From contig NC_057757.1 in the NCBI RefSeq assembly GCF_004010195.1, positions 2,588,327 to 2,648,422 of the forward strand: a stretch of DNA of 60,096 nucleotides, read 5' to 3'. The notes beneath the pieces are model-generated. The model saw nothing but the letters and a program-made list of their open reading frames with translations, had not been told where the DNA came from and searched no databases. Of this stretch, positions 16,686 through 32,959 are shown piece after piece (within the stretch, counting starts at the first letter, position 1; each line of letters opens with the position of its first letter). The translations under genes were made by a program, and so were the position numbers. This DNA is from Chiloscyllium plagiosum (taxonomy: Eukaryota).

Positions 16686-16691
16686 TTTATT
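16686..16691 (-). terminator. Probable polyadenylation signal of the CARD-VLIG gene
   Basis: tttatt on the + strand about 530 nt past the stop at 17218. Confidence 0.5.
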
Positions 16692-17217: not shown

Positions 17218-20200
17218 CTATTTCAGTTCTTTTTTCCTAAACATATTGTATGTTTTCACAATTTCTGCCCTTACAGTTTCCTTCTGTATATTTTTCCAGT
17301 CAACAGGAATATCAGCTTTGTTGGCCTTGTAAGCTTCTGCAAACTCTCTATTAAAAGTAGACAGGACATATTTCCAGTAGGTTGCTGCTTGGACACTTGT
17401 GTCAGGCGGAATATCCCAGGAAGCGAAATAATCATTTACACTGCGGTAGTCTTTATAGGGATGGAATGTATATTCAGTCTCTGCACAGCGGAATGAACTG
17501 TCAGATGCTACTGCAGAAGTGCACACTGTCGCCACAAGCTTGTTGTTGTCAATATAGCGATAACTATTTAGTCCTTCAGGTCGATGGGTTGTAGCAAAAT
17601 GCTCCTTATGTCCTGAGCCTTCACGTTCACAAGGCACTCCACAGAATGGGCACATCTTCCCACAGCCGAGAACCTGGCGGAAGATCTCTTCATCCGGCTG
17701 CACTGGCAGACGTGGCAGAACTTCTTCAATGTCGCAATTCTTGTGAAAGTCTGATGTGAGTTTCTGCTCCACGTCATCCAGGGCAGTAGTAAAATCAGTA
17801 GCAAACTCTCTGGCTGTGACAGCATTCTGAAAGAGTATAATTTCCAAACTCTCCTTGTTAATTACAAAATCATTCTTCAAAATGTCACAAAATTCTGTTA
17901 AAAATTCTGACACGTTCTCCTTCTCCATCACCATTGCTTGTTTTATGGCATCTTTTGTCTTTCGTATCAGTGCTCGGATTATTTTTGTGATGATCTCCAT
18001 AATTTTAGTTGTTCCCGTGTAATTCTTTATTATTCTTTTCCTGATCCACTGTCTTGCAAAATGCTCATAGTTTTTGATATATTGTAAGTAATTTTCCACA
18101 CGGTGCTCATCCAGCAAATCCAGTAGAATCACAGCTTGGAGATAGGCTCTGCTGCTCATTTCATGGTTTGTACAGCTGGCTTTTACACCTTCGACAATCT
18201 CCACACCAAGCTTTTTGTCAATGGCTTTCTGAAATGCGGGCTGGAGGCAGTTGCTGCACAGAGCTTGAGCCCTTTTCTGACTTTGATCTTTCTCGTGGTA
18301 AATATCTTTAAAAGTGGAATAGTAGGCATCCTTCATTGTTGTCAGACAAGTCAGTGGATCGTTCTCTCTGAAGAAATCTTGGTGCATCTTTTGGAAAATC
18401 GGCAGGACATAACCACACATATGCAGCTTTAGGTCTACCTCAAAGTTAACATTTGTGTGAAAGTGGCACCATTTCCTATTCAGTAATGTATCGTCAGTAT
18501 TTTTCAGCAATGTTTGACAGTAAGTTGGATCGAAGTCAACTTTTGCTTTCAGCTTTTCCAGTGCAAACTGCTCAGCGTTTTCAATTAAACTATCTGCAAA
18601 CACTTGCACTTCACTGCTAGATCCATTTGTAAAAAAGTCTTTAGCTCTTTGCCAATAACCCCTCTCAATATGATCCCTGGTAACTTTAAACTCGACTTGT
18701 CCTTTTTCAAATAGTTTCCCAGCGGTATCTAATCTCTGGCACACCGCACTGCCTCGATAGCGTAGATTTTGTTGCAGTTGATTTTCAAACTCAATTTCGA
18801 TGTTCTGTTGTTTGATTGACATTGCCTGAAGTGGTTGGACTGTATCTCTCCACATCTTTTCAAACTTTTCCTTGAGTTTACTGTCATTGAGTTCAGAATT
18901 TGACTCTTTGCACATTTGTAGCAGTTCACAGACCTGTTTCTGAATAATCCCCTGATACTCCTTCTGTATGTTATCCAGTTTGGCCATGCCTTTGCGCCTC
19001 TGAATTGCATCCTCACATTTGCGCTTGCTGTAAATCTCAAGCTCATTTCGCAAACTCTCAGTACTCAGGGTGAAATCCATTTTGAATTTCTCCACAAGAT
19101 GGATGTTGTCTACTTTGCTGTTGAAGTATTTTTCCAGATGTATGAGAATCATTTGCTTTTGCGCCTGGAGAATTTTATTTGTTTCTTGTATCAGAGTCTG
19201 GTACAAATCATCAAGCTGATCAAGAGGGTGATTCCCAATGTTGTTCTCAGCCTTTTCTACCTGGGAATGAATGCTTTTCCTAAATTGCCACTCCCATTCC
19301 GAGTACTTCAAACTGAGCTGGCTGTAAGCATCTGCAACTAGGCTGTTTCTAAAACTGAAAATGAAATTTTCGTACTTGACTGCATTCCATAAACCCTTCA
19401 TCCATTCTCTGAATTGGTGAATCGTAAATGGTTCTTTTCTTTCTCTGCGTTGCTTAAACAAATCAAACAGATATTTCTTTAGTTCAAATATATTTTCACT
19501 GTAGCCAGTGTTTACCGGTGCCATGGGAGGAACACCATGCCAGAGGCCTGGAATGTACCAGTTGTTCTTTTCAGGATCATATTCCATGATATCTGAAAAC
19601 TTTGTGAATTTGTGGTCTTTCTTCTCCATCTTTGCTGCTGCCTTTGTCATTTCATTTAACTGATCCAGGAGATGCTTCCTGTCTCTCATGTTCTGATCAT
19701 GTGCTGACACTTCTCCCACATTTTGATGAATGAACTGACAGTTTGGTTTGTGCCCTACCTCTTTCATCCTCAGGAAGGCGTGCACCACTATCTGCAAGAT
19801 ATCCTTCATTTCAGAAGAGTTTTCCATAGCCATGTTGACTAATGTAATGTCACTCAGTCCAACAACCAGCGTTGCAAGTTCGTTATCATGTTCATGGCTG
19901 TCCTCCAGCTTTGCCAGTTCTGGAGCTTTTAATCCTTCAGTGTCAATAATCATCAGGTACTCACTACCGATCTCCTTGCTCAGGTCTCCTGTAATTTTGA
20001 TCAACTGCATGAAGGCTCCTCTTGTACATCTCCCACTGCTCACTGCAAACTGCAAACCAAACATAGTGTTTAAGAGGGTAGACTTCCCTGTACTCTGTAC
20101 ACCCAGGACAGTCAGAACAACTATTTTAGTATCTGGTCCTAGTTTCTCTGAAAGATGTGTGAGCACAGCGCTGACCCACTGTTCAGAAATGCTGGACGCA

Positions 20201-21956
20201 TCGCCATCTAGAAGTTCAAGTGGAAAGCCATCTAACATGAGATCAGCAACCACACTAGGAAGTGATGTATACTGACGAGTATTTTCTGACAGAATGTGTT
20301 CCTGAACTAGAGTTGCCTCAGCTTCATAAATCTGTCCTATTTCTCGCATGAAATGTTCTAGCCCTAGAGAACTGTCTGATATTTGTTTGTCGAGGTCTGT
20401 GAGTTTTTTGGTTGCACCAGGTGATGCTTTATATAATTGTTTATAAGCTTCACGTAATTCAGAAAGCTCTTCTCGTGCGGTGGCATCGAGAAGATATTTG
20501 ATCCATTTCAGGAACAAGTGTCTTTCATCGTGGCTCGTATTTGCCATTACTGCGACAAACTCAGAAAGGTTTTCCGTAATGTCATACTCTCGCTGTTTCT
20601 TCCGCAAATTTGTTAGTTCAAGTCTGAGTTCGGAGTTGTATGCCTCAACAGGCATATCACCACGCTTCTTCTGGCGACAAAGCTCCTTGTCTATCTTCGA
20701 CCATTTCTTCCAGAGCTCTCCCTGTAAGGGTAGTTTTTCCATCTTATACTCTGCCACACTTCGCATGTCTCCCATGGCAGCCTCTGCCACTTCTTTAGCA
20801 CTATGGCAGTGTGGCTCATCTTCATCCACTAAAATCTCTAACTTGCGAGCTACATCAGCCATTCCCTCAATGCTCACACAGTCTGTCATGTTTTCCAAAG
20901 TCTCCTTGATGCATGATCGAATTTGTTCAACAAACATTGATGTGTTCACGTTCTTATTTTTAACAATAATGTGATTCCGTTCCAACTTCATTAATGGAGC
21001 CAGTTTCTGGAGAAAGCTGCTTGTAACAACCTGCTGGTCCAGCTGTGGATTGAGGATGAGGAAGTATCGCGTTTCCAATTCAGCGACAGACTCCAAAAAA
21101 GCGAACTCGTTGGCACCGACCTGATCGACAAATATAAAGACTGCTGAGGATACCTGAGCCAGGAAATGAACTTGGGAGCGTAGCGTACTTGCATCACCAC
21201 GGAGGTTGGCAATGAGGATGGGTTCTGTGAAGATATCAATATTTCTCTTGCCACAGGGGAGGTACCAGCAGAACTCCACTAATCCGTCCGAAATTTTCCG
21301 AGGAATATCACCACATTCCATGCTGTGAGTGACAAAGAAGTTGTGATGATGGTGGGGGTTACTTAATACCTCATTGAGAATCCTTGATTTGGAAGTACTG
21401 CACTCACCCAGGCGAATAAATGAAATAACGTGCATTGGCGTGGTCACCATTGTTGCCTCTTTGAATCCTTTACTCGCCTCGAGTGACTGAGGTCTCCACT
21501 TCTTCACAATGAAACGCATGGCCCACAGCAGTAGGGTGCTGTTGTCCTTGCTGTAATCTGGCAGTAAGAGAGGCAGCGCAAACTGACACATAGACATCTT
21601 CATCATCACCTCTTGCTGCAGGATGCTGTCAGCACAAAGGAAAACTGCAGTAATGACATCCAGTGGATTGCATGCATCGCCAGTGTCTTTTCCCGTGATA
21701 TCAAAAAGATCGGAAAAATTTGTTTGATCAACGGTCAGTTTAGGAATGTCTGCTGAGCATTTGATATTTCTGGCTGTCAAATTGAGAATCATAAGTTTCT
21801 TTAGAAAATACCACGGAATATCTTCCAAGCTTTGTGACTTTGCACACGCTATGGTTTCTGGGCCCATTTCAAGAATTTTGCTTAAAGAAAGTTTCTCTCT
21901 CAAGTACTTCTGTAGTTTCAGCTTGGAAAGCACTTCCTGAAAATTGTTTTCTTTGA
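17218..21956 (-). CDS. URGCP/GVIN1-like very large inducible GTPase, large terminal exon of a CARD6-like CARD-VLIG gene
   Basis: Uninterrupted 1571-aa ORF; P-loop GVQSTGKS (20080-20103), GRCTRG, G3 DTEG, HDNELAT, C-terminal GCGKMCPFCGVPC...H; phase-1 acceptor tttcacag|TC at 21956 is in frame. Confidence 0.92.
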
Positions 21957-22169
21957 CTGTGAAATGAAAAATACAAAAGATGCTTCAAATATGTAAATTA
22001 AACATATTTCTCTTCTGATATTGCAGTCCATTTCAACATAGAATATGTTCCGTCAAGTTTACATTAAGTTACACTAGAGATTTCTTAATTAAGTGCCCAT
22101 TTTACGTGGCACAGTTGCTCAGTAGTTAGCACTGAGGGACCTGGGTTTGATCCAATCAATGGCCTATGA

Positions 22170-22647
22170 GATTCATTAGAAATCTGAACTAATAAGTTAA
22201 GGAAAGAATAAAAATAATATGATGTTGTGGCCATTACAGAGACTTGGTTGAGAGAGTCACAGGACTAGCTGCTAAACTTTCCCAGGTTTCGTTGTTTTAG
22301 ATGAGATAGAGAGGGAGTTAAAAGAGGTGGAGGAATTGCATTTCAAGTCAGGGAGAACGTCGCATCTGCATTCAGAGAGGACATACTGGAGGGCTCATCC
22401 ACTGAGGCAGGAAGGGTAGAGCTCAAAAATAAGATAGGTGCAATCACTCTGATAGGATCATACAATTGCCCCGCAACAGCCACCGAGACATTGAGAAACA
22501 AATATGTAGGCAGATTATGGAAAGATGCAATAACAACAGGGTTGTCATAGTGAGTGATTTTAACTTCTCCAGTATTGACTGGGGCTTCATTAGAGCAAAA
22601 GGCTTAGATGGTGCAGAATTTGTTAAGTACATCCAAGAGGGTTTCTT
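22170..22647 (+). mobile_element. CR1 LINE endonuclease segment, left of the Tx1 insertion
   Basis: ORF 22466 has VVIVSDFNFSSIDW...FVKYIQEGF and continues at 27698. Confidence 0.85.
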
Positions 22648-22855
22648 TTTTTATTATTTCAAAAATATACTTTATTCATAAATACTTTGATCTATACAAC
22701 TGGACATGTCATACATATGTACACATTCCATTTCTTTGCGTATCGAAACAGAGTAATCATTCTTATTTACAGGTTGGTGCGATTACATTGAGCTGAGACG
22801 CCAGCAGAGCCCAAATGACTGCGTGGGCCCCTTGTTCTTCTGAGGCAGGCAGATG

Positions 22856-25800
22856 TTACATGGTGGTCTTTCCCCACCACGCCTTGGCGGCAGCTGCCCC
22901 AAGCTTCAGCGCGTCCCTCAACACATAGTCCTGGACCTTGGAATGTGCCAGTCTGCAACACTCAGTCGGGGTCAACTCCTTCAGCTGGAAGATCAACAGG
23001 TTTCGGACCACCCAGAGAGCGTCCTTCACCGAGTTGATGATCTTCCAGGCGCAGTTGATGTTCGTCTCGGTGTGCGTCCCGGGGAACAGGCCGTAGAGCA
23101 CGGAGTCCCGCGTCACAGTGCTGCTCGGGATGAACCTTGACAAACCTCACTGTATTCCTCTCCAGACTTCCTCTGCATAGGCACATTCCACAAGGAGGTG
23201 TGTGACAGTCTCGCTCCCCCCGCAGCCGCTTCGAGGGCAGCGTGCGGTGCGGCAGAGAGTCCGGGCGTACATAAAGGATCTCACAGGCAGAGCCCTTCTC
23301 ACCACCAGCCAAGCCATGTCTTGGTGCTTGTTGGAAAGTTCTGGCGATGAGGCATTCTGCCAAATGGCTTTGACAGTCTGCTCAGGGAACCGCTCGATAG
23401 GATCCGCCCTCTCCTTTTCCCGAAGGGTCTCAAGGACACTACGTGCTGACCACTTCCTGATGGACTTGTGGTCAAAGGTGTTTTTCTTCATAAACTTCTC
23501 CACGAAGAACAGGTGATCTTTTATGGATGTTGGGCAGGCTTTGAGAGTCAGGAAGTCAGTCTTCTGTTGCAGGCTTCCCAGCGTCTGACCTGCTGTTGTA
23601 TCCACTGTATTGATATGGTAAGTACAATTCAATTGCTGGTCAATGATAAATTACCAAATTATTAATCAAATTGTTCATTATTCAGTTACTGCAAACAGCT
23701 CCCGAAATTCTTAATCCATTTCTTTAAAGATACCTCAAAGAGTTAATGCAAAGTGTGATTAGTTCTGGTTATAGAAAGCTGAATATGCTGAATCTCACTC
23801 AATTATTCCCAGAGGAGATCTTACATAGTGACAGCAATGTCCAGGTGTGAGGTGGAAGTGGCTCATGAGGCACAGTGTTGTAACTGCCTTGTTGCAGTTT
23901 TACTGTCAGATTAGTGTGTTTTACATTTCAGCAGATATTCAGGCAGCAGGTGGAACAGGATGGTGACTCAACTGGGTGACGTATAGGCAAAGTTGCAAAT
24001 GTTAAATCAGCAGCTGTGAAAGGAAACTTCCTGATCCCAAATGACTGTCCTATTTATACTGCAAAGGCACGAAAGAGTGTCAGCAAATTTAATGGCTATC
24101 TAGCAATGTTGCTTTTTAATGAATATTTTGCACAGTTTGCTCAGTAGAATTATGGGCAGTTGCTCCACTAAGAGCGACACTGACTAGATTTTACCAAGAT
24201 GTTTGGTACACATCCTTTATTGATCAGAGCATTGAGTAGAGGTGTTGATCTGGTCGATTAGGCCTTTTTTTGGAATACTACCTTCAATTCTGGTCAATCG
24301 TATCTCTGAGGAGTGCGAGACTCTCAGCAATCGTCCTGCCCGGTACAGCACAGGTTTGGTCAGGGTGAATCACCGACCCCAGAGCAGACCTGACCCAGTT
24401 GGCAATGACCTTTGACAAGATTTTGTAGTCTGTGTTTAACAGTGAGATTGGTCTCCAATTTCTAATTTCCTCCCTCTCCCCCTTCTACTTGTAGATGAGG
24501 GTGATGATGCCTTTCCTCATGGATTCACTCATAGTACCTGCCCGAAGCATACTGACATACACCTCCAGCAGGTCCCGGCCAATCAAGTCCCAAAGAATAG
24601 ATTTCGACCAGTAAGCCGTCACTTCCGGGAGTTTTATTCTTTTCGAAGGACTCGAGGGCCTTGGTCAGCTCATCCAGAGATAGCGGCTGGTCCAGCCTCT
24701 CCCATGTTCCGTCGTCTAGGACCTCCGTGATAGAGGACAGGGATGACTGGGAGGCCGTGCTGTCGATTGGCTTCGAGTCATACAGACTGGCATAGAAGGA
24801 TTTACTGATCCTCATGATGTCAGCCTGAGATGACGTTGCCGAGCCATCTTCTTCCTTCAGGCTGCAGAGCACGGGGCTCTCTTTGTGCACCTTCTGGATG
24901 AAGAAACGTGAGCAGGTCTCGTCTTGCTCCACCGAGCGGACCCTGGACCGGAAGATTATCTTGGAGGCCTCCGAGGCAAAGAGCGAGGCTTGCTGGCCCT
25001 TCACCTCCTGGCCCTTCACCTCTGTGACATCGACCCCCATTGTCTGCAGCAGGAGCAGGTTCTGCATACTTTCCTGGAGTTGGGACAGTTTTCCCCGCCT
25101 CTCTCTCGCCTCCTGAACAACTTTGAGGGTGAAGAACCTCTTGATGTTCCCTTTTACTGTTTCCCACCAGTCCACTTGGGACTAAAAGAGGGGCTTCGCG
25201 GTTCTCCAACCTGCGTAGTCCCTCTTGAGCTCCTCGATGTTACCCGAGGTCAACAGCTTGGTGTTCAGTTTCCGCGTTCCCTTACCAGCCCGCTGCTCGT
25301 CCTGTAGGTGACAATTGGCCAGCAGGAGGCAGTGGTCGGAGAAGAACACGGCTTGACGTCGGTGGATCTGACCGAGAGCGTTCGGGACACAAACAGGTAA
25401 TCTATCCTTGAGCGGATAGACCCGTCTGCCCGTGACCAGGTGTATCTACGCTGCGCTCTGTCTGCAGGGGTGCTGAAGACGTCGTGCAGCTTGGCATCTT
25501 TGACCGTGTCCATCAGGGCTCTGGACGTGGCGTCCAGTTTAGTGTCCCCCCCGGCCGGATCATCCATCTGCATCGATGATACAGTTGAAGTCTCCGGCCA
25601 GAATGACCGGCCTGGACGTAGCCAGCAACAGTGGAAGCTGGTGCAGGACGGCCAACCGTTCACTCTTACCCGCTGGGGCGTACACATTGATTAGTCTCAC
25701 GGGAGCGTTTCTGTAGGTAACATCAGCAACGAGGAGGCGCCCGCCCACCACCTCCTTAACCTCGGAGATGGTGAAGTTGCCTCCCCGTAACAGGATACCC

Positions 25801-26015
25801 AGGCCCGAGGAGCGGTTATCGTTGCCCCCCGACCACACTGACGGCCCATGGGCCCACAAGCTCGACCATCTCCTGTAACTGCTGAGGTGCGGTATCCCAC
25901 ACTCCTGCAGGAACAGGACATCGGCTTTCACGTTGGCCAGGAAGGCCAGTGTTGAAACACATTGTGCAGCAGATTTTATGCTGCGCACATTAATAGTTGC
26001 AATTTTTAACCCCAT
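22856..26015 (-). pseudogene. Tx1 ORF2 (APE endonuclease, partial RT, C-terminal zinc finger), disrupted
   Basis: MGLKIATINVRS..FLQEC..NVYAP..ILAGDFN..SRIDY; KTPGSDG; CPRSGCGGSETVTHLLVEC; frameshifts; central RT replaced by foreign DNA. Confidence 0.85.
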
Positions 26016-26130
26016 TTTGTTAACAGGTTGTAAGGTTACCCATGTCCGATTGTCACTGGTCCTGCCCCTCTGGGGTAGCTGTCTGCATCCCCACGCAGCA
26101 CGCAAACTGCTGGACCCTCACAGGGCTGAT

Positions 26131-27494
26131 TTAGCTGTCCAGTTCCTCACTCGGCCCATTTGCCCGCTTCGGTGTCATCGGGCCGAGACCAGGGTCCACG
26201 CTGTCTGTTTCTATATCCGACAGCGGGGCTGTCAGAGGGTCGCTGCTCCCAGTGACCTGGAGCTGTGTGGCGGTGGGGCCCTCTTGGCTTTCACCTGGTG
26301 GGGGGTGGTAGTTTCCCATTTCCTCAAGAGGTTCGTCCCTTGGTTGGCAGTTGCTGCTCTCCTTTCTCCTCTCAGCGCTCTGCCTCTTCTTTTGGTGATG
26401 ACCCTCCTTATGCCCGTCCTCACCCTCCGAACAGCTGTCCGTGTCTTCCACCTGCAGCTGCCTTTTCCCCTTTTTCTGGGAGGTCTTGGTGGCCGGGTGG
26501 GTTTTCCTCCTCTTGTTTTGCACCACAGTCCATTCCTCTGCCTCCTTCTTTCCCTTCTCCACCTCCTCCTCCTCCGCCTGTCCTGTCGGAGATTCGCTCG
26601 GCAGCTGTCCCTCTCCGGTAGCTGTCCCTCTCCGGTAGCTGTCATCTGCTTTGTTCAGGCCTGTCCTTCCTTTTGCATGCCCCCAGACACCATTCCCTTG
26701 CCGGTTTGCGGTGCCTTGCCGTCCTTTTGTGGCCCGCCTCCGGCCATCTGCGTGTAGGTGGCGGCCCCTCGTCTTGGGCAGGCCCTGTACACGTGGCCTG
26801 CCTCCCCGCACAGATTGCAGTTCTTTTCCTCTTTGCATTCTTTGGTCGGGTGACCCTCCTTCTTGCAGTTCCGACAGATTGTGACCTTGCAGTCCGCCGC
26901 CATGTAGCCTGACCTCCCACAGGTTCGGCACACTTTCGGCTGCCCTGCATAAGTCAGGTACTCTCTGCTCCCTCCGATAGCAAAGCTGGAGGGTGGGTGG
27001 AGGATATTCCCGCTGGCATCAACCCTCAGGGTTAACTTGACCTGTCGTAAGCTGGTCCAGATCCCGAAAGGGTCAACCACATTGGTGCTTTATCCCTCGA
27101 CCTGCACATATCTTCCCAGGAACGTCAGGACATCGGTTGCTGGCAAGTAGGGGTTGTACATGTGGACCGTAACAACCCGACTCCTCTGTGCAGGAAGCAC
27201 ACACAACGGGACCGCCGACAAGATGGAGAACAGCGGCTCCCCTTCCTTCTCCTTGAAGACCTTCAGGAGCTGCTCACATTGCTTCATGCTCCTGAAGGTG
27301 ACGTCAAAGTAGCCTGCCCCAGGGAAATCCTGCAGGCAGTACACATCTGCTGCGGCGAATCCACAGCACTCGAACAACACCTTCTTGACGAACACCGTCC
27401 GATCGACTGGTGTACGCTCTTCCACCTTCTTGACAGTCACCCGGACTGTGTTGCGAACGCCCTGGCCTGGGGTGCGAGCAGCTGTTGAGGCCAT
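26131..27494 (-). pseudogene. Tx1 ORF1 (ZCCHC3-like, three zinc knuckles), disrupted
   Basis: MASTAARTPGQGVRNTVRV...YFDVTF; CRTCGRSGYMAADC, CRNCKKEGHPTKEC, CNLCGEAGHVYRAC; stops at 27090 and 26655 and a 17-bp duplication frameshift. Confidence 0.85.
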
Positions 27495-27652
27495 AGCTCT
27501 GAGGTTGGCTGGTCCCTGAATTGGCGTTAGGCCGAAGCCAGCATGAAGATCCACCAATAGCAGGTCAGCACAACCAAACGATCCTCTAATGTCCAATCAC
27601 GATCCAGCGATGATCTCCACTAGCTCTGATGACTCGCAACTTGACTCCTGTC

Positions 27653-27699
27653 CTGATAAGAACAGACACTTGATCTTAGCCAAAAGGCCGAGAAGCGAT
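27653..27699 (-). pseudogene. U2 snRNA 5' fragment (nt 1-52, 5-nt deletion) forming the retrotransposon 5' end
   Basis: ATCGCTTCTCGGCCTTTTGGCTAAGATCAAGTGT then CTGTTCTTATCAG equals vertebrate U2 nt 1-34 plus 40-52. Confidence 0.92.
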
Positions 27700-30040
27700 C
27701 CAAGAGGGTTTCTTGGAACAGTATGTGGATAGTCAAACTGCAGGAGGAGCCATACTGGACCTTGTAATGGCTAGTGAGCCTGGCAAGGTGACTGACCTTT
27801 TAGTGGGTGCACATTTTGGAAACAGTGGTCACAACCCCTTAAGTTTTAAGATTGATATGAATAAGGATAAGTCAAGACCTTGTGGGAATGTACTAAACTG
27901 GGGAAGGGCAAATTATGTCAGTATTAGGCAGGAACTAGGGAGTATTCATTGGGAGGAGCTTGTTATTGGGCAAGTCCACATTTGGCATGTGGGAATTGTT
28001 TAAAGACCTACTGATCAGAGTTGAGGACTGGCATGTTCTTAAGGATGAAAGACAAGGATGGCAAGGTAAGGGACCCTTAGATAATGAGGGAGGTTCTGAA
28101 TTTAGCCAAAAGGGAAAAAGGGGCATATGTAAATTTTCGAAAATTGGACAAGGCCCATGAGGAATATAAAGAAAGCAGAGTAGAACTCAAGCAGGAAATT
28201 AGGAGAGCAAGAAGGGGCCATGAAATGACCTTGGAGAGTAGGGTTAAAGAGAATCCCAAGGCATTCTATCTTGACATTAAAAATAAAAGGAAAGCTAAAG
28301 AGAAGGTAAGACCACTCCACAATAAAGGAGGGAACTTATGTTTGGATGAGATCCTAAATGAGTGCTTTGCACTGGTGTTCACCCAGGAGAAGGATATGGA
28401 GGATAGTGAGATTAGAGTGGAGCATGCTAATATGCTAGGGCATTTTGAGATCAAGGAAAAAGTGGTAGTGGGTCTCTTGAAGAGTATTAAGGTAGATAAA
28501 TTTCCAGGGCCTGATAGTTTCTACCCCAGGTTATTGAGACAGGCGAGAGAGGAGATTGCTGGGGCCTTGACCAAGATTTCTGCATCCTCACTAGTCACTG
28601 GTGTGGTCCTGCAGGACTGGCGAGTAGGTAATATTGTTACTCTGTTCAAGAAGGGAAATAGTAATAATTGAGGATGGTGAGTCTCACTTCAGTAGTTGGG
28701 AAGCTATTGAAGAGAATTCTTAGGGATAGAATTTACGCATATTTGGAAAAGTGTGGCCTAATTAAGTACATCCAAGAGGGTTTCTTGAAACAGTATGTGG
28801 ATAGTCCAACTGCCGTACTGAACCTTGTATTGGCTTTGAGCGGGACAGGTCATGTCTTACTAACTTAATTACATTTTTCGAGGAGATGGCAAAGTGATCA
28901 TTGAGGGTAGAGCAGTGGATGTTGTCTGTATGGATTTTAGTAAGGCTTTAAACAAGATCCCTCAATGGTAGGTTCATGTAGAAGATTAAGATGCATGGAA
29001 TCCATGGTAACTTGGCCATTTGCAATCAGAGTTGGCTTGCCCAAAGAAGGCAGAGGATAGTGGTGGGAGGGTGACTTTCAGGCTGGAGATCTGAGACTGG
29101 TGGTGTTCTGCATAGATCCCATACTCTGCTATTTGTGATATATGTAAATTACTTGGATGAAAATGTAGATTTTAGCAAGTTTGCAGTAGACACAAAGATC
29201 GATGGGGTTGTAGAATGTTATCAAAGGATACACATCAAAGGATATAGATCAGCTGCAGATATGGGCAAGAAAATAGCAGATGAAGTTTAATCCCAGTAAG
29301 CGTGAGGTGCTGTACTTTGGGACATAAATGTGAAGGAAATGTATCCAGTTAATGGCGGGACCCTGAACAGCATTGATATACAGAGGGATCTGAGGGTTCA
29401 AGTCCATAGTTCCCTGAAAGTGGCCACCCAAGTGGATAGGCTGGTAAAGAAGGCATAAGGCATGCTTGCTTTTATTGGTTGGGGAATTGAGTACAAGAGT
29501 CAGGATGTCATGTTGCAGCTTTATGAGAGTTTGGTTAGGCCAAACACTGAAGAGTATTGCATTCAGTTCTGGTCGCCACATTACAGGAAAGATGTGGAGA
29601 GTTTAGAGAGGGTGCAGAAGGATGATGTGTGGATTAAATGGTATAAGCTATAAGGAGAGGCGAGAAATTCTCAGGTTGTTTTCTCTGGAGCAGCGGAAGC
29701 TGAAGGGTGATTTGGTAGCAGTCTATAAAATTATGAGATGCATAGATAGGGATGACGGTCAGAATCTTTTTTCCCAGAGTTAAAATATCTAATACTAGGG
29801 GCATGCATTTGAGATGATGGAGGGAACGTTTTTTACAGAGTGTGGTAGGAGTCTGGAATGTGCTGCCAGGGATGATGGTGGAAGCACATACAAAAGAAGC
29901 ATTCAGGAGACATTTAGATAAGCACGTGAATCTGCAAGAAATGGAGGGATATGGATCAAGATTAAGCAGAAGGGATTAGTTTAATTTGGTATCATGTTCA
30001 GCACAACATGGTGGGCCAAAAGGTCCATTCCTGTGCTATA
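27698..30040 (+). mobile_element. CR1 LINE ORF2 remainder and 3' end, right of the Tx1 insertion
   Basis: AILDLV, KENPKAFY, KFPGPDS, VSLTSVVGK, YCIQFWSPHYRKD fragments in order. Confidence 0.88.
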
Positions 30041-30234
30041 TTAAATAAATGAAGGTTTCACTGAACCGGAAACAATAACACTTTCTCTCCACAGATGCTA
30101 CCAGACCTACTACAATTCTCCAGAAATTTCTGATTTGGTTAAGGAAAGAAGTTTGATTTTTGAGCAACCCTAACATTGTAGATATTACAGTAAAATCCCT
30201 GCAGCCCCTCATAAAAAACTATTTGTTTATTCTG

Positions 30235-30366
30235 ATTCCTGATGAAGGGCTTTTGCCCGAAACGTTGATTTTCCTGCTCCTCCGATGCTGCCTGACCTGC
30301 TGTGCTTTTCCAGCACCACTCTAATCTAGACTCTGGTTTCCAGCATCTGCAGTCCTTGTTTTTACC
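30235..30366 (+). mobile_element. Penelope-related short element with a family-A hammerhead motif (30239-30266)
   Basis: CTGATGA-A-GGGC-TTTT-GCCC-GAAACGTT followed by the shared gatgctgcctgacctgctgtgcttttccagca body. Confidence 0.7.
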
Positions 30367-30408
30367 GATAAACTGTTTGTAGCCAACCCAATTCAATAAA
30401 TGATGCAC

Positions 30409-30504
30409 CTTTTTTCCCAATTCTTTGTTGGTTTTCTTCTTGTTGATTGAGCAAGTCCTTCTCAGCAGCAGGAGTTCCACTTGTATTAGTACAGCAAGAT
30501 TCAC
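30409..30504 (-). CDS. Putative linker exon of the CARD-VLIG gene
   Basis: ctcttgactcag|GT GAA...AAA AAA G|gtgcat; (G)ESCCTNTSGTPAAEKDLLNQQEENQQRIGKK; 96 nt, phase 1 to 1; alternative in-frame acceptor at 30528; donor is weak. Confidence 0.55.
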
Positions 30505-30675
30505 CTGAGTCAAGAGAACAAACAGACCCTGTAAACCATACAAAGCATTGAAATAGTACTAGTTCAGCAGGAAGGTAGGAACAGGAGAAGTGAGTTCTCC
30601 CCTCAAGGCTGTTTACCATCAATGAGGTCATAGCTGACCCACAGCTTGACTCTCTGTATATCAGTATCCTCGGTA

Positions 30676-30920
30676 GCACGGTGACTCTGTGGTTAGCACT
30701 GCTATCTTGCAGCATCAAGGACCTAGGTTCAATTCTACCCTTGGGTGACTGTCAATGTGGAATTTGTGTGCAGTCCCCGTGTCTGCATGGGTTTCCAGTT
30801 TCCTCCCACAGTCCAAAGATGTGCAGATTAGGTGCATTGGCTGTACTAAATTGCCCGTAGCATCCTGGAATGTGCAAACTAGGTGGATAGGCTGCAGGAA
30901 ATGCAGGTTTATAGGGTTGG
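30676..30920 (+). mobile_element. HE1-type V-SINE
   Basis: gcacggtgactctgtggttagcactgct head and conserved body. Confidence 0.8.
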
Positions 30921-31321
30921 GTTGCTGTGGACTTAGTGCCTAAAAATCTGCTTAACAATTGTCAGTACTTCTCAATGGAAGCTTACAAACACAATGAAAA
31001 TTGTTGAAGGAAGATACTTAATTTAATGAAGTATGAAGTGGTAAAAAGACTGTGGGCTGTTGTGCTTCACTCTTAGCTGGCCGTGAACTCTTACTATGCT
31101 GCTTTTAGAAGACTCCCACTTTTCCAATGTAGACTTAACTGCAGGTAGCTGCTACCAGTGTGCGTTTGCCAGATCCTGTCTACTGATATTGAAATCAGCC
31201 TCACCCCCCCTCAATTTAGAGACCTAACTTCTGCACTATTCTTATCCCTTTCCATATGATTTTGAAACTTACAGGGTCTGATTGTGAATTTAGTAATACT
31301 GACTTGCAAGCTCCAACTCAC

Positions 31322-31625
31322 CTCTTGTGGCAAGATTAAATCCAACCAATATTTCATCCACTCCTGGGAATTCACTCTGTAAACTTTGCAGAACTCTTAG
31401 AAAGATCTCACAAGTCTCCTCTCCCTTCAGAACCACAGTGTTTATAATTGTTCTGATCTTATCCTTGGGATCTGTGATCCCATCAATACGATTATACTCA
31501 TCCACTTTGAAGATGAGCATCGCATCGAACTCATCAAGGAGAACGTTTGGTTGCTCTTTCAGAATGTCAATGAGCGTTCTGCGATTTTTCCGTAGAATGT
31601 CTGATGGAATCTGTTCCGAAGCCAT
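31322..31625 (-). CDS. CARD-domain exon (CARD6-like), first coding exon of the CARD-VLIG gene
   Basis: MASEQIPSDILRKNRRTLIDIL...DEY...KGEETCEIFLRVL is a typical CARD; Kozak aaaATGG; acceptor at 31651; donor G|gtgagt at 31322 (phase 1). Confidence 0.85.
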
Positions 31626-32959
31626 TTTGTGGGACAGTTACTTAGCAACACCTGTGAGGAAATACAAAGTTGTTAGCCGAATCGTTAATAGACTTTGAAG
31701 CAATAAATTAGAAACATTAATTCTCTCTGTGCTATTCTTACCTTCTTCTATAACAATGTAAAATCTGAAGCTTGTTGATAGACTCAGAGCCAGTGCTCCT
31801 ACTATACCAATGAAAACTACAAAATTTAATTTAGTTGTGTTTGAACTGTAATTGTTTAAAAATAAAAGACACTTATTTATGCTCAGAATGATGCGCTGGC
31901 TTTGGAAGACCAGAGGAGGTTTACAAGAACAAACCTGGGGATGAAGGGCTTGACATGTGAGGAGTGGTTAAGGACTCTGGGTCTGTACTCGATGGAGTTT
32001 AGAAGAATCAGGGGGGAATCTGATTGAAACTTATAGAACACTGGACGAGGAGAAGGTATTTCCGTTAGTCACAGAGAGTAGTACCTGAGGCCACAGCCTC
32101 AGAGTGAAGGGATGACCCTTTAGAACTGAGATGAGGTGGAATTTCTTCAGCCAGAGGTTGGTGAATCTTAGAAATCCTACAGTGTGCAAATCAGGCCCTT
32201 CAGCCCAACAGCAACCCTCCAAAGAGTAACCCGTGCAGACCCATTCCCCCTACTCTATATTTACCCCTGACTAATGCACCTAACCTAGGCATCCCTGAAC
32301 ACTATGGGTAATTCAGTGTGGCCATTTCACCTGGCCTGCACATCTTTGTGCCCAACCAACACCTGGCCCAACCAATCAAGAACCTATCTATCTCTGTCTT
32401 AAAGACACTCGATGACAAAGCCTAGAAATTACACTAAAAAATAAGTGGCAATTCTTTGATTCATCCAAACCTTTAACTTTTCCATCCATTGGCAGGCACC
32501 AGGCTTTGTTTTGGACTCCCGAGTTATCAACTGAAGGACTGGTGCTTTCAGAGAGTCTAATATAATTCCCTGAAGATCCTCCCACCTTTTGCAAAACAGC
32601 AACATGTGATTTCCAATAAACACTGAGTATAGTTTCTATTGGTGGCATACGTCACTCCCGGGCAATAGTTACAATCACAATGTATGGATAATTCCTCAGA
32701 ATCTGTACTTGAAAGGCTGGATGTTTCTTCTCTTTCCTTTGACCTTGCACTACAGTATCAATGATATATGGAGATTACAGTGCTTATCTCAGGACAAATT
32801 AACCCTACAGAACAAGAAAATCCAATCTTTGATTTCCCTTGCTGTAGGGGAATAAAGATTAAAATAATAGCAATTGTCATTTTTGATAATGGATTGGATC
32901 AGTATGACAGCTTTGATAGAAAATTTGAGAATGGAATTGCAAACACAATTGCAAGCAAG

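Follow-up and report, generated by a model that had tools for sequence, protein, structure and literature searches.

A predicted fusion of a CARD with a complete very large GTPase in the shark Chiloscyllium plagiosum, and its kinship with CARD6, URGCP and NOL3

CARD6 resembles URG4 and VLIG-1, PANTHER places CARD6 with NOL3, and a zebrafish GTPase of the GBP family, Gbp4, carries a CARD at its C terminus. Among the proteins of these kinds with a described activity, the human giant GTPase GVIN1 forms a coat on cytosolic Burkholderia thailandensis, and predictions give it two large-GTPase domains and dimerisation by way of its GTPase domains (passages of bioRxiv 10.1101/2025.03.24.645074). CARD6 binds RIPK2 with conflicting effects and is reported to bind microtubules (passages of PMC6949089), and the CARD of ARC, the product of NOL3, mediates inhibition of apoptosis (passages of PMC11445919). 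Here we describe a gene on the minus strand of a 60,096-nucleotide (nt) stretch of the genome of the shark Chiloscyllium plagiosum (G000:C48:2588327-2648422, on a 10-Mb contig; the whole stretch is hereafter the window), whose predicted product joins a CARD of the CARD6 type to a complete GTPase of the VLIG/URGCP type. An earlier interpretation made from the letters alone (hereafter, the sequence-only reading) had taken it for an ancestral-type, full-length CARD6/VLIG.

The gene comprises three coding exons (Table 1) that, when joined, encode 1712 amino acids (aa) with a single terminal stop, AG/GT ends and matching phases; omission of the linker exon leaves the frame open (1680 aa). The three exons (31625-31322, 30504-30409 and 21956-17218), their phase 1 and both open frames, all given by the sequence-only reading, were re-derived in full. 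The joined model aligns without gaps and at equal length with its closest named match, an NCBI protein of Chiloscyllium punctatum (P0001), with 1638 of 1712 residues identical (96%). A 3533-nt contig of run X1, which shares its organism label with the best DNA matches, joins 31318-31653 to 30409-30500 with exactly the 817-nt intron removed, and its match to the genome breaks off right at the linker donor (30409), with 3060 nt still to follow; in run X2, from another organism, the first joint is identical but the sequence extends 36 nt beyond the linker donor. None of the runs listed with the large exon is recorded as RNA, and the RNA status of X1 and X2 is presumed; X1 contains 0.76 of the sampled words from the 4739-nt exon. 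The X1 contig thus displays the splice from CARD to linker exon and shows that the linker donor is used, and the join from linker to large exon is one that we infer. The same contig sets the start of the CARD exon at 31651 and bears 45 extra letters, pointing to at least one further upstream exon, and raw single-cell runs were uninformative on the exons (X10 reads fell on repeats only; X11 gave 0 reads). Colinearity with P0001, together with the first splice and linker-donor use in X1, agrees with the earlier claim that CARD and GTPase belong to one gene, and we regard the three-coding-exon structure as real with near certainty. Candidate poly(A) signals lie at 16691 and 16763 on the minus strand, 450-530 nt past the stop, and the long intron holds a retrotransposon (24528-27596, minus strand, in the direction of the gene) in which Pfam finds a ZCCHC3-type RBD, zinc knuckles and endonuclease pieces, and which we take to be Tx1-like.

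In the product, Pfam identifies a CARD (PF00619, E 2e-10) followed by URGCP (PF25496, E 4e-113) and URGCP_GTPase (PF25683, E 1e-192), the latter two in this order and both far above cut-off; the GTPase body, more than 1500 aa long with its Cys/His tail, is encoded on one exon. The motifs that had been reported as intact (that is, G1 GVQSTGKS at aa 752, G3 DTEG at aa 805 and the CPFC/HRP tail) were all located in the 1712-aa protein. A homologue search found 1191 proteins, and the homologue figures given here are from the best 120; the G1, G2, G3 and HQN motifs, intact in the shark, are kept in 118, 119, 113 and 120 of these. The Cys/His cluster is a predicted metal site, and the first (URGCP) domain may be a degenerate GTPase fold, as its degenerate P-loop (GxxxxSKS, at 118 places among the 120 homologues) and the pair of large-GTPase domains predicted for GVIN1 suggest; GBP/RHD3 look-alikes of this domain score 0.82 or lower and are a lead only, and HHalign of the first against the second domain found no link (1.3%). 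Weaker Pfam matches on the G region are to RHD3, GBP and dynamin. Among solved structures there was no sequence match to the GTPase part, and a single-sequence AlphaFold model of the CARD (predicted local distance difference test score 49) was not used.

Kinship with CARD6 and NOL3 is evident in the CARD itself. When the shark CARD was searched against 1.84 billion representatives, 55 matches were obtained, the 30 named ones including CARD6 of bat, wombat and gerbil and NOL3 of opossum and turtle. In the opposite direction, the best match of wombat CARD6 in the shark genome is this gene (URGCP domain, E 1e-55 versus 5e-44; CARD, 1e-5 versus 7e-5, a near tie), and its closest relatives overall are full-length proteins of turtle, crocodilian and caecilian. 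A careful CARD tree (67 rows, 93 columns, outgroups mostly uncharacterised CARDs) unites all CARD-VLIG CARDs, CARD6 and NOL3 in a clade of 44 of the 67 rows (92/89, not starred), including an amniote subclade of 24 made up of CARD6, NOL3 and sauropsid CARDs (98/98). NOL3/ARC thus belongs to the same CARD clade as the CARD-VLIGs and CARD6, and the CARD6-type character that the sequence-only reading had assigned is borne out by both search and tree. Several NOL3/ARC CARDs (P0162, P0169, P0171 and P0170) nest among amniote CARD-VLIG CARDs. One turtle protein that bears the name NOL3 falls with the turtle CARD-VLIG instead of opossum NOL3; it may have been truncated separately, or its model may be partial. 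In a further homologue search no named mammalian protein was among the 120 matches listed, and mammalian GVIN1 was not among the matches listed in the homologue searches.

Outside the CARD, mammalian relatives match different portions of the shark protein. For CARD6 of bat and wombat, alignment is confined to the CARD and aa 135-521, and neither has a G domain by Pfam; the suggestion that mammalian CARD6 lacks the canonical GTPase motifs was therefore correct but too narrow, as in these two species the whole G domain and the C-terminal half are gone too. Mammalian URGCP aligns to aa 134-965 (approximately 38%), with G1 kept (GVPGTGKS) and G3 reading DSGG. The URGCP-domain tree, a quick IQ-TREE run, was built from 63 rows chosen from about 390 proteins, six loci of the shark's own genome and the window (an incomplete domain led to the loss of one of the chosen rows, and two ray proteins were kept by their last repeat). 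It mostly matches the species tree, with cartilaginous fishes, coelacanth, ray-finned fishes and tetrapods (100), and places this gene in a slowly evolving orthogroup of shark and chimaera, with which the other shark paralogues group (94). CARD6 and URGCP are sisters (92) beside sauropsids (90); without URGCP and four long rows, CARD6 falls within tetrapods (99) beside sauropsids (92), and without CARD6 and the same four rows, URGCP falls within tetrapods (99) beside sauropsids (87), the supports on CARD6/URGCP placement (99-100, 87-92) being those of the Shimodaira–Hasegawa-like approximate likelihood-ratio test. Holding CARD6 with the shark orthogroup was rejected by the approximately unbiased test (p-AU 1.6e-4). 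Because this exclusive clade is rejected and the neighbouring genes differ (see below), the gene is very probably a pro-orthologue of both CARD6 and URGCP and not CARD6 itself. Of the proposed ancestral-type CARD6/VLIG, the ancestral look of the full-length form stands, and an exclusive tie to CARD6 gives way to an equal relationship with URGCP. The full-length CARD-GTPase is likely to be the ancestral jawed-vertebrate layout, of which mammalian CARD6 and URGCP would be complementary truncations.

This layout is common in non-mammalian vertebrates, where databases annotate it automatically, and is not peculiar to this shark. The CARD type is borne by 57 of the best 120 homologues, 55 of which also have the G1, G3, Cys and HRP motifs, and ten carry 2-3 tandem CARDs; represented among the CARD-bearing proteins are sharks, chimaera, coelacanth, caecilian, salamanders, frog, turtles, alligators, tuatara and lizards. 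Birds, mammals and CARD-bearing ray-finned fishes do not appear among the 120, a ranked list from which absence is unproven. Other family members replace the CARD with FN3, PYD, Ig, TRIM or AIG1 at the equivalent place, which suggests a swappable N-terminal module of a kind typical of immune sensors. P0001 has the same Pfam set, CARD included, under the name 'interferon-induced very large GTPase 1'. The fusion singled out by the sequence-only reading is ancestral-looking and one of many CARD-GTPases of non-mammalian vertebrates that are already annotated.

Within the shark genome, a GTPase profile gave 14 matches on C48, C37, C46 and small contigs, and three CARD matches were found; the two other CARD exons (L002:1501-1761, plus strand; L003:1498-1752, minus strand) are 25-29% identical and fall outside the CARD6/NOL3 clade. 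Paralogous VLIG genes lie at G000:C37 5.12 Mb and 19.71 Mb and at C46:10.91-10.93 Mb (L005-L009, L013 and L015), those on C46 forming a cluster, and some have in-frame stops. Batoid VLIGs (P0012 from skate and P0022 from ray) contain 2-3 tandem URGCP domains and are CARD-free, and no skate or ray orthologue with a CARD was among the best 120 matches. In a coelacanth protein (P0142) the same CARD type is joined to a GTPase-like P-loop domain of small size; its contig equals in length the one that carries the coelacanth CARD-VLIG P0016.

The flanks (100 kb on either side) contain exons of galactose-3-O-sulfotransferase (GAL3ST), TRAPPC14 and an L6/TM4SF gene, as judged from 136 candidate frames of the 200-kb flank and the window, a scan that may miss small genes. 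In human, C7 and PTGER4 are found near CARD6 (passages of PMC6643130). As for markers of the CARD6 locus, the genome has 22 MACPF and 7 L37e matches, and C48 carries none of either; PTGER4 was not searched for. Because the flanks differ from the neighbours of CARD6, the gene is not at the CARD6 position and the family has moved. Many single-exon MACPF (perforin-like) frames were seen on C49 (four matches) and on several small contigs.

Table 1. Coordinates of the gene and its encoded domains in the window, and loci of the neighbouring genes
Feature	Position	Strand	Details
CARD exon	31322..31651	-	ATG 31625; 304 nt coding; phase-1 donor; 26 nt of 5' untranslated region after AG acceptor; X1 contig fit 31318-31653
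817-nt GT-AG intron	30505..31321	-	Skipped at the joint in X1 and X2
96-nt linker exon, phase 1 to 1	30409..30504	-	Contig fit 30409-30500; colinear with P0001
8.45-kb intron with broken non-LTR (long terminal repeat) retrotransposon	21957..30408	-	GT/AG ends; removal suggested by P0001 colinearity
4739-nt exon, whole VLIG/URGCP-type GTPase	17218..21956	-	Stop TAG 17220-17218
URGCP domain, aa 230-527	20776..21669	-	PF25496; portion retained by CARD6
URGCP_GTPase region, aa 556-953	19498..20691	-	PF25683; G1 20103-20080; G3 19944-19933
C-terminal Cys/His cluster, CxxxCPxC ... HRPxG	17569..17664	-	CxxxCPxC in 118/120 and HRPxG in 113/120 homologues
Neighbouring genes GAL3ST, TRAPPC14, L6/TM4SF	L019:5894-8268 (+), L024-L026 (+), L033-L035 (-)		

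We consider it reasonably probable that the product serves in cell-autonomous defence and that its assembly, driven by GTP, would cluster its CARD, in a layout ancestral to CARD6 and URGCP. By analogy with human GVIN1, the shark GTPase would hydrolyse GTP and dimerise, and the resulting assembly would coat cytosolic microbes and cluster many CARDs, which, being brought together, would recruit RIPK2 or a caspase as CARD partner. For the specific step in which the protein acts as an activating sensor, our expectation is evenly balanced. Several points weigh against this interpretation. The join between linker and large exon was not directly observed; CARD6 locus identity was rejected on the flanks and the markers described above; CARD6 and URGCP are long branches, with two full CARD6 rows used; and all trees are unrooted and contain no GVIN1, so that the analogy with GVIN1 coating reaches over an unmeasured distance. 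A scan of the window for interferon-stimulated response elements (ISREs) gave two core matches and no strong one (the start site being unlocated), and we found no biochemical or cell work on any CARD-bearing member. CARD6-deficient mice are reported to show no immune signalling defect, and accounts of the direction of the NF-kB effect are in conflict (passages of PMC6949089). Finally, ARC/NOL3 is the best match among solved structures, whether the query is the profile of the CARD, the CARD of the shark or wombat CARD6 (profile E 7e-19 versus 8e-8 for the next).

This last match bears directly on an alternative in which gene and ancestry are the same and the CARD is a brake like that of ARC, binding and dampening caspases or RIPK2 at the site of GTPase assembly; the coat would then restrict microbes without killing the cell. 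The nesting of NOL3 in the same CARD clade and the inhibition of apoptosis by the ARC CARD point the same way, as does the raised inflammation and apoptosis after CARD6 loss in one mouse study (passages of PMC6949089). However, ARC is a short derivative without a GTPase, and the tandem CARDs and PYD swaps of relatives appear to fit nucleation of signalling better; we hold the brake to be rather unlikely. Less probable still is a non-immune role at the membrane or cytoskeleton (that is, atlastin/RHD3-like remodelling or growth control) with the CARD only a scaffold, to which RHD3_GTPase as the best non-URGCP Pfam match (E 3.5e-8), the slow change of the shark and chimaera orthogroup and the lack of a strong ISRE in the window would be congenial, but which sits poorly with lineage-specific expansions, N-terminal domain shuffling and the demonstrated antimicrobial role of GVIN1 (passages of bioRxiv 10.1101/2025.03.24.645074). 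That the CARD and linker exons form a CARD-only, ARC-like transcript, the GTPase exon being expressed separately and the fusion a gene-model artefact, is very improbable: the undisplayed second joint, the read-through of X2, poly(A)-like hexamers within the intron and the shark models P0006 and P0007 without a CARD are consistent with it, but in X1 the contig runs on after its genomic match stops precisely at the linker donor, and the same in-frame fusion is modelled in nearly half of the best homologues.

Returning to the defence protein with a GTP-clustered CARD, we tentatively propose, as a possibility that falls short of an even chance, that a CARD-bearing giant GTPase was ancestral in jawed vertebrates as a self-contained sensor, coating microbes and signalling by its own CARD, and that mammals lost the intact gene and kept fragments of it. 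CARD6 would then be the CARD with a dead GTPase domain, URGCP the GTPase without CARD, and NOL3/ARC the CARD with linker. If true, the near-normal CARD6 knockouts would be explained, and the fragments may act in trans to regulate the old pathway or to rebuild it. In the literature reached (titles and abstracts, with subscription journals beyond reach), we found no account of CARD-bearing VLIGs or of a shared origin of CARD6, URGCP and NOL3, and the passages available of PMC4476151 and PMC3925390 address neither CARD-bearing VLIGs nor a three-fragment origin; the layout and the link among the three genes seem to be undescribed, although databases already display them. Understanding of CARD6, of URGCP and of the giant GTPases is poor, and the coating of bacteria by GVIN1 was shown only recently. 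An intact CARD-GTPase, present from sharks to crocodilians, offers a natural full-length protein for probing assembly-driven CARD signalling, and a single ancestry now takes in three genes of mammals, one of them encoding ARC, a much-studied inhibitor of cell death. The gene is thus chiefly of evolutionary and comparative interest.

Compared with known systems, the shark protein shares with zebrafish CARD-bearing GBPs such as Gbp4 the pairing of an interferon-type GTPase with a CARD, but those proteins are GBPs with the CARD at the C terminus, an independent fusion. Human GVIN1 and mouse VLIG-1 are giant GTPases encoded in one long, intronless frame with two predicted large-GTPase domains; the word CARD is absent from the GVIN1 paper (bioRxiv 10.1101/2025.03.24.645074). 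P0001 and the CARD-VLIG models of other non-mammalian vertebrates are automatic annotations only, and the name of P0001 omits both the CARD and the CARD6/URGCP link. NOL3/ARC, a cell-death inhibitor, continues from a CARD of the same clade into an acidic Pro-rich linker with no GTPase-derived part. Mammalian URGCP has no CARD and ends just past the G domain, whereas the shark protein has the CARD and continues. CARD6 shares with the shark protein the CARD type (36%), the linker and the URGCP domain (33-35%), its CARD being 55-60% identical to those of turtle and crocodilian CARD-VLIGs; it lacks the G domain, the helical half and the Cys/His tail and has instead a Pro/Gln/Ser-rich end and a longer acidic linker, whereas the full G domain is present in the shark.

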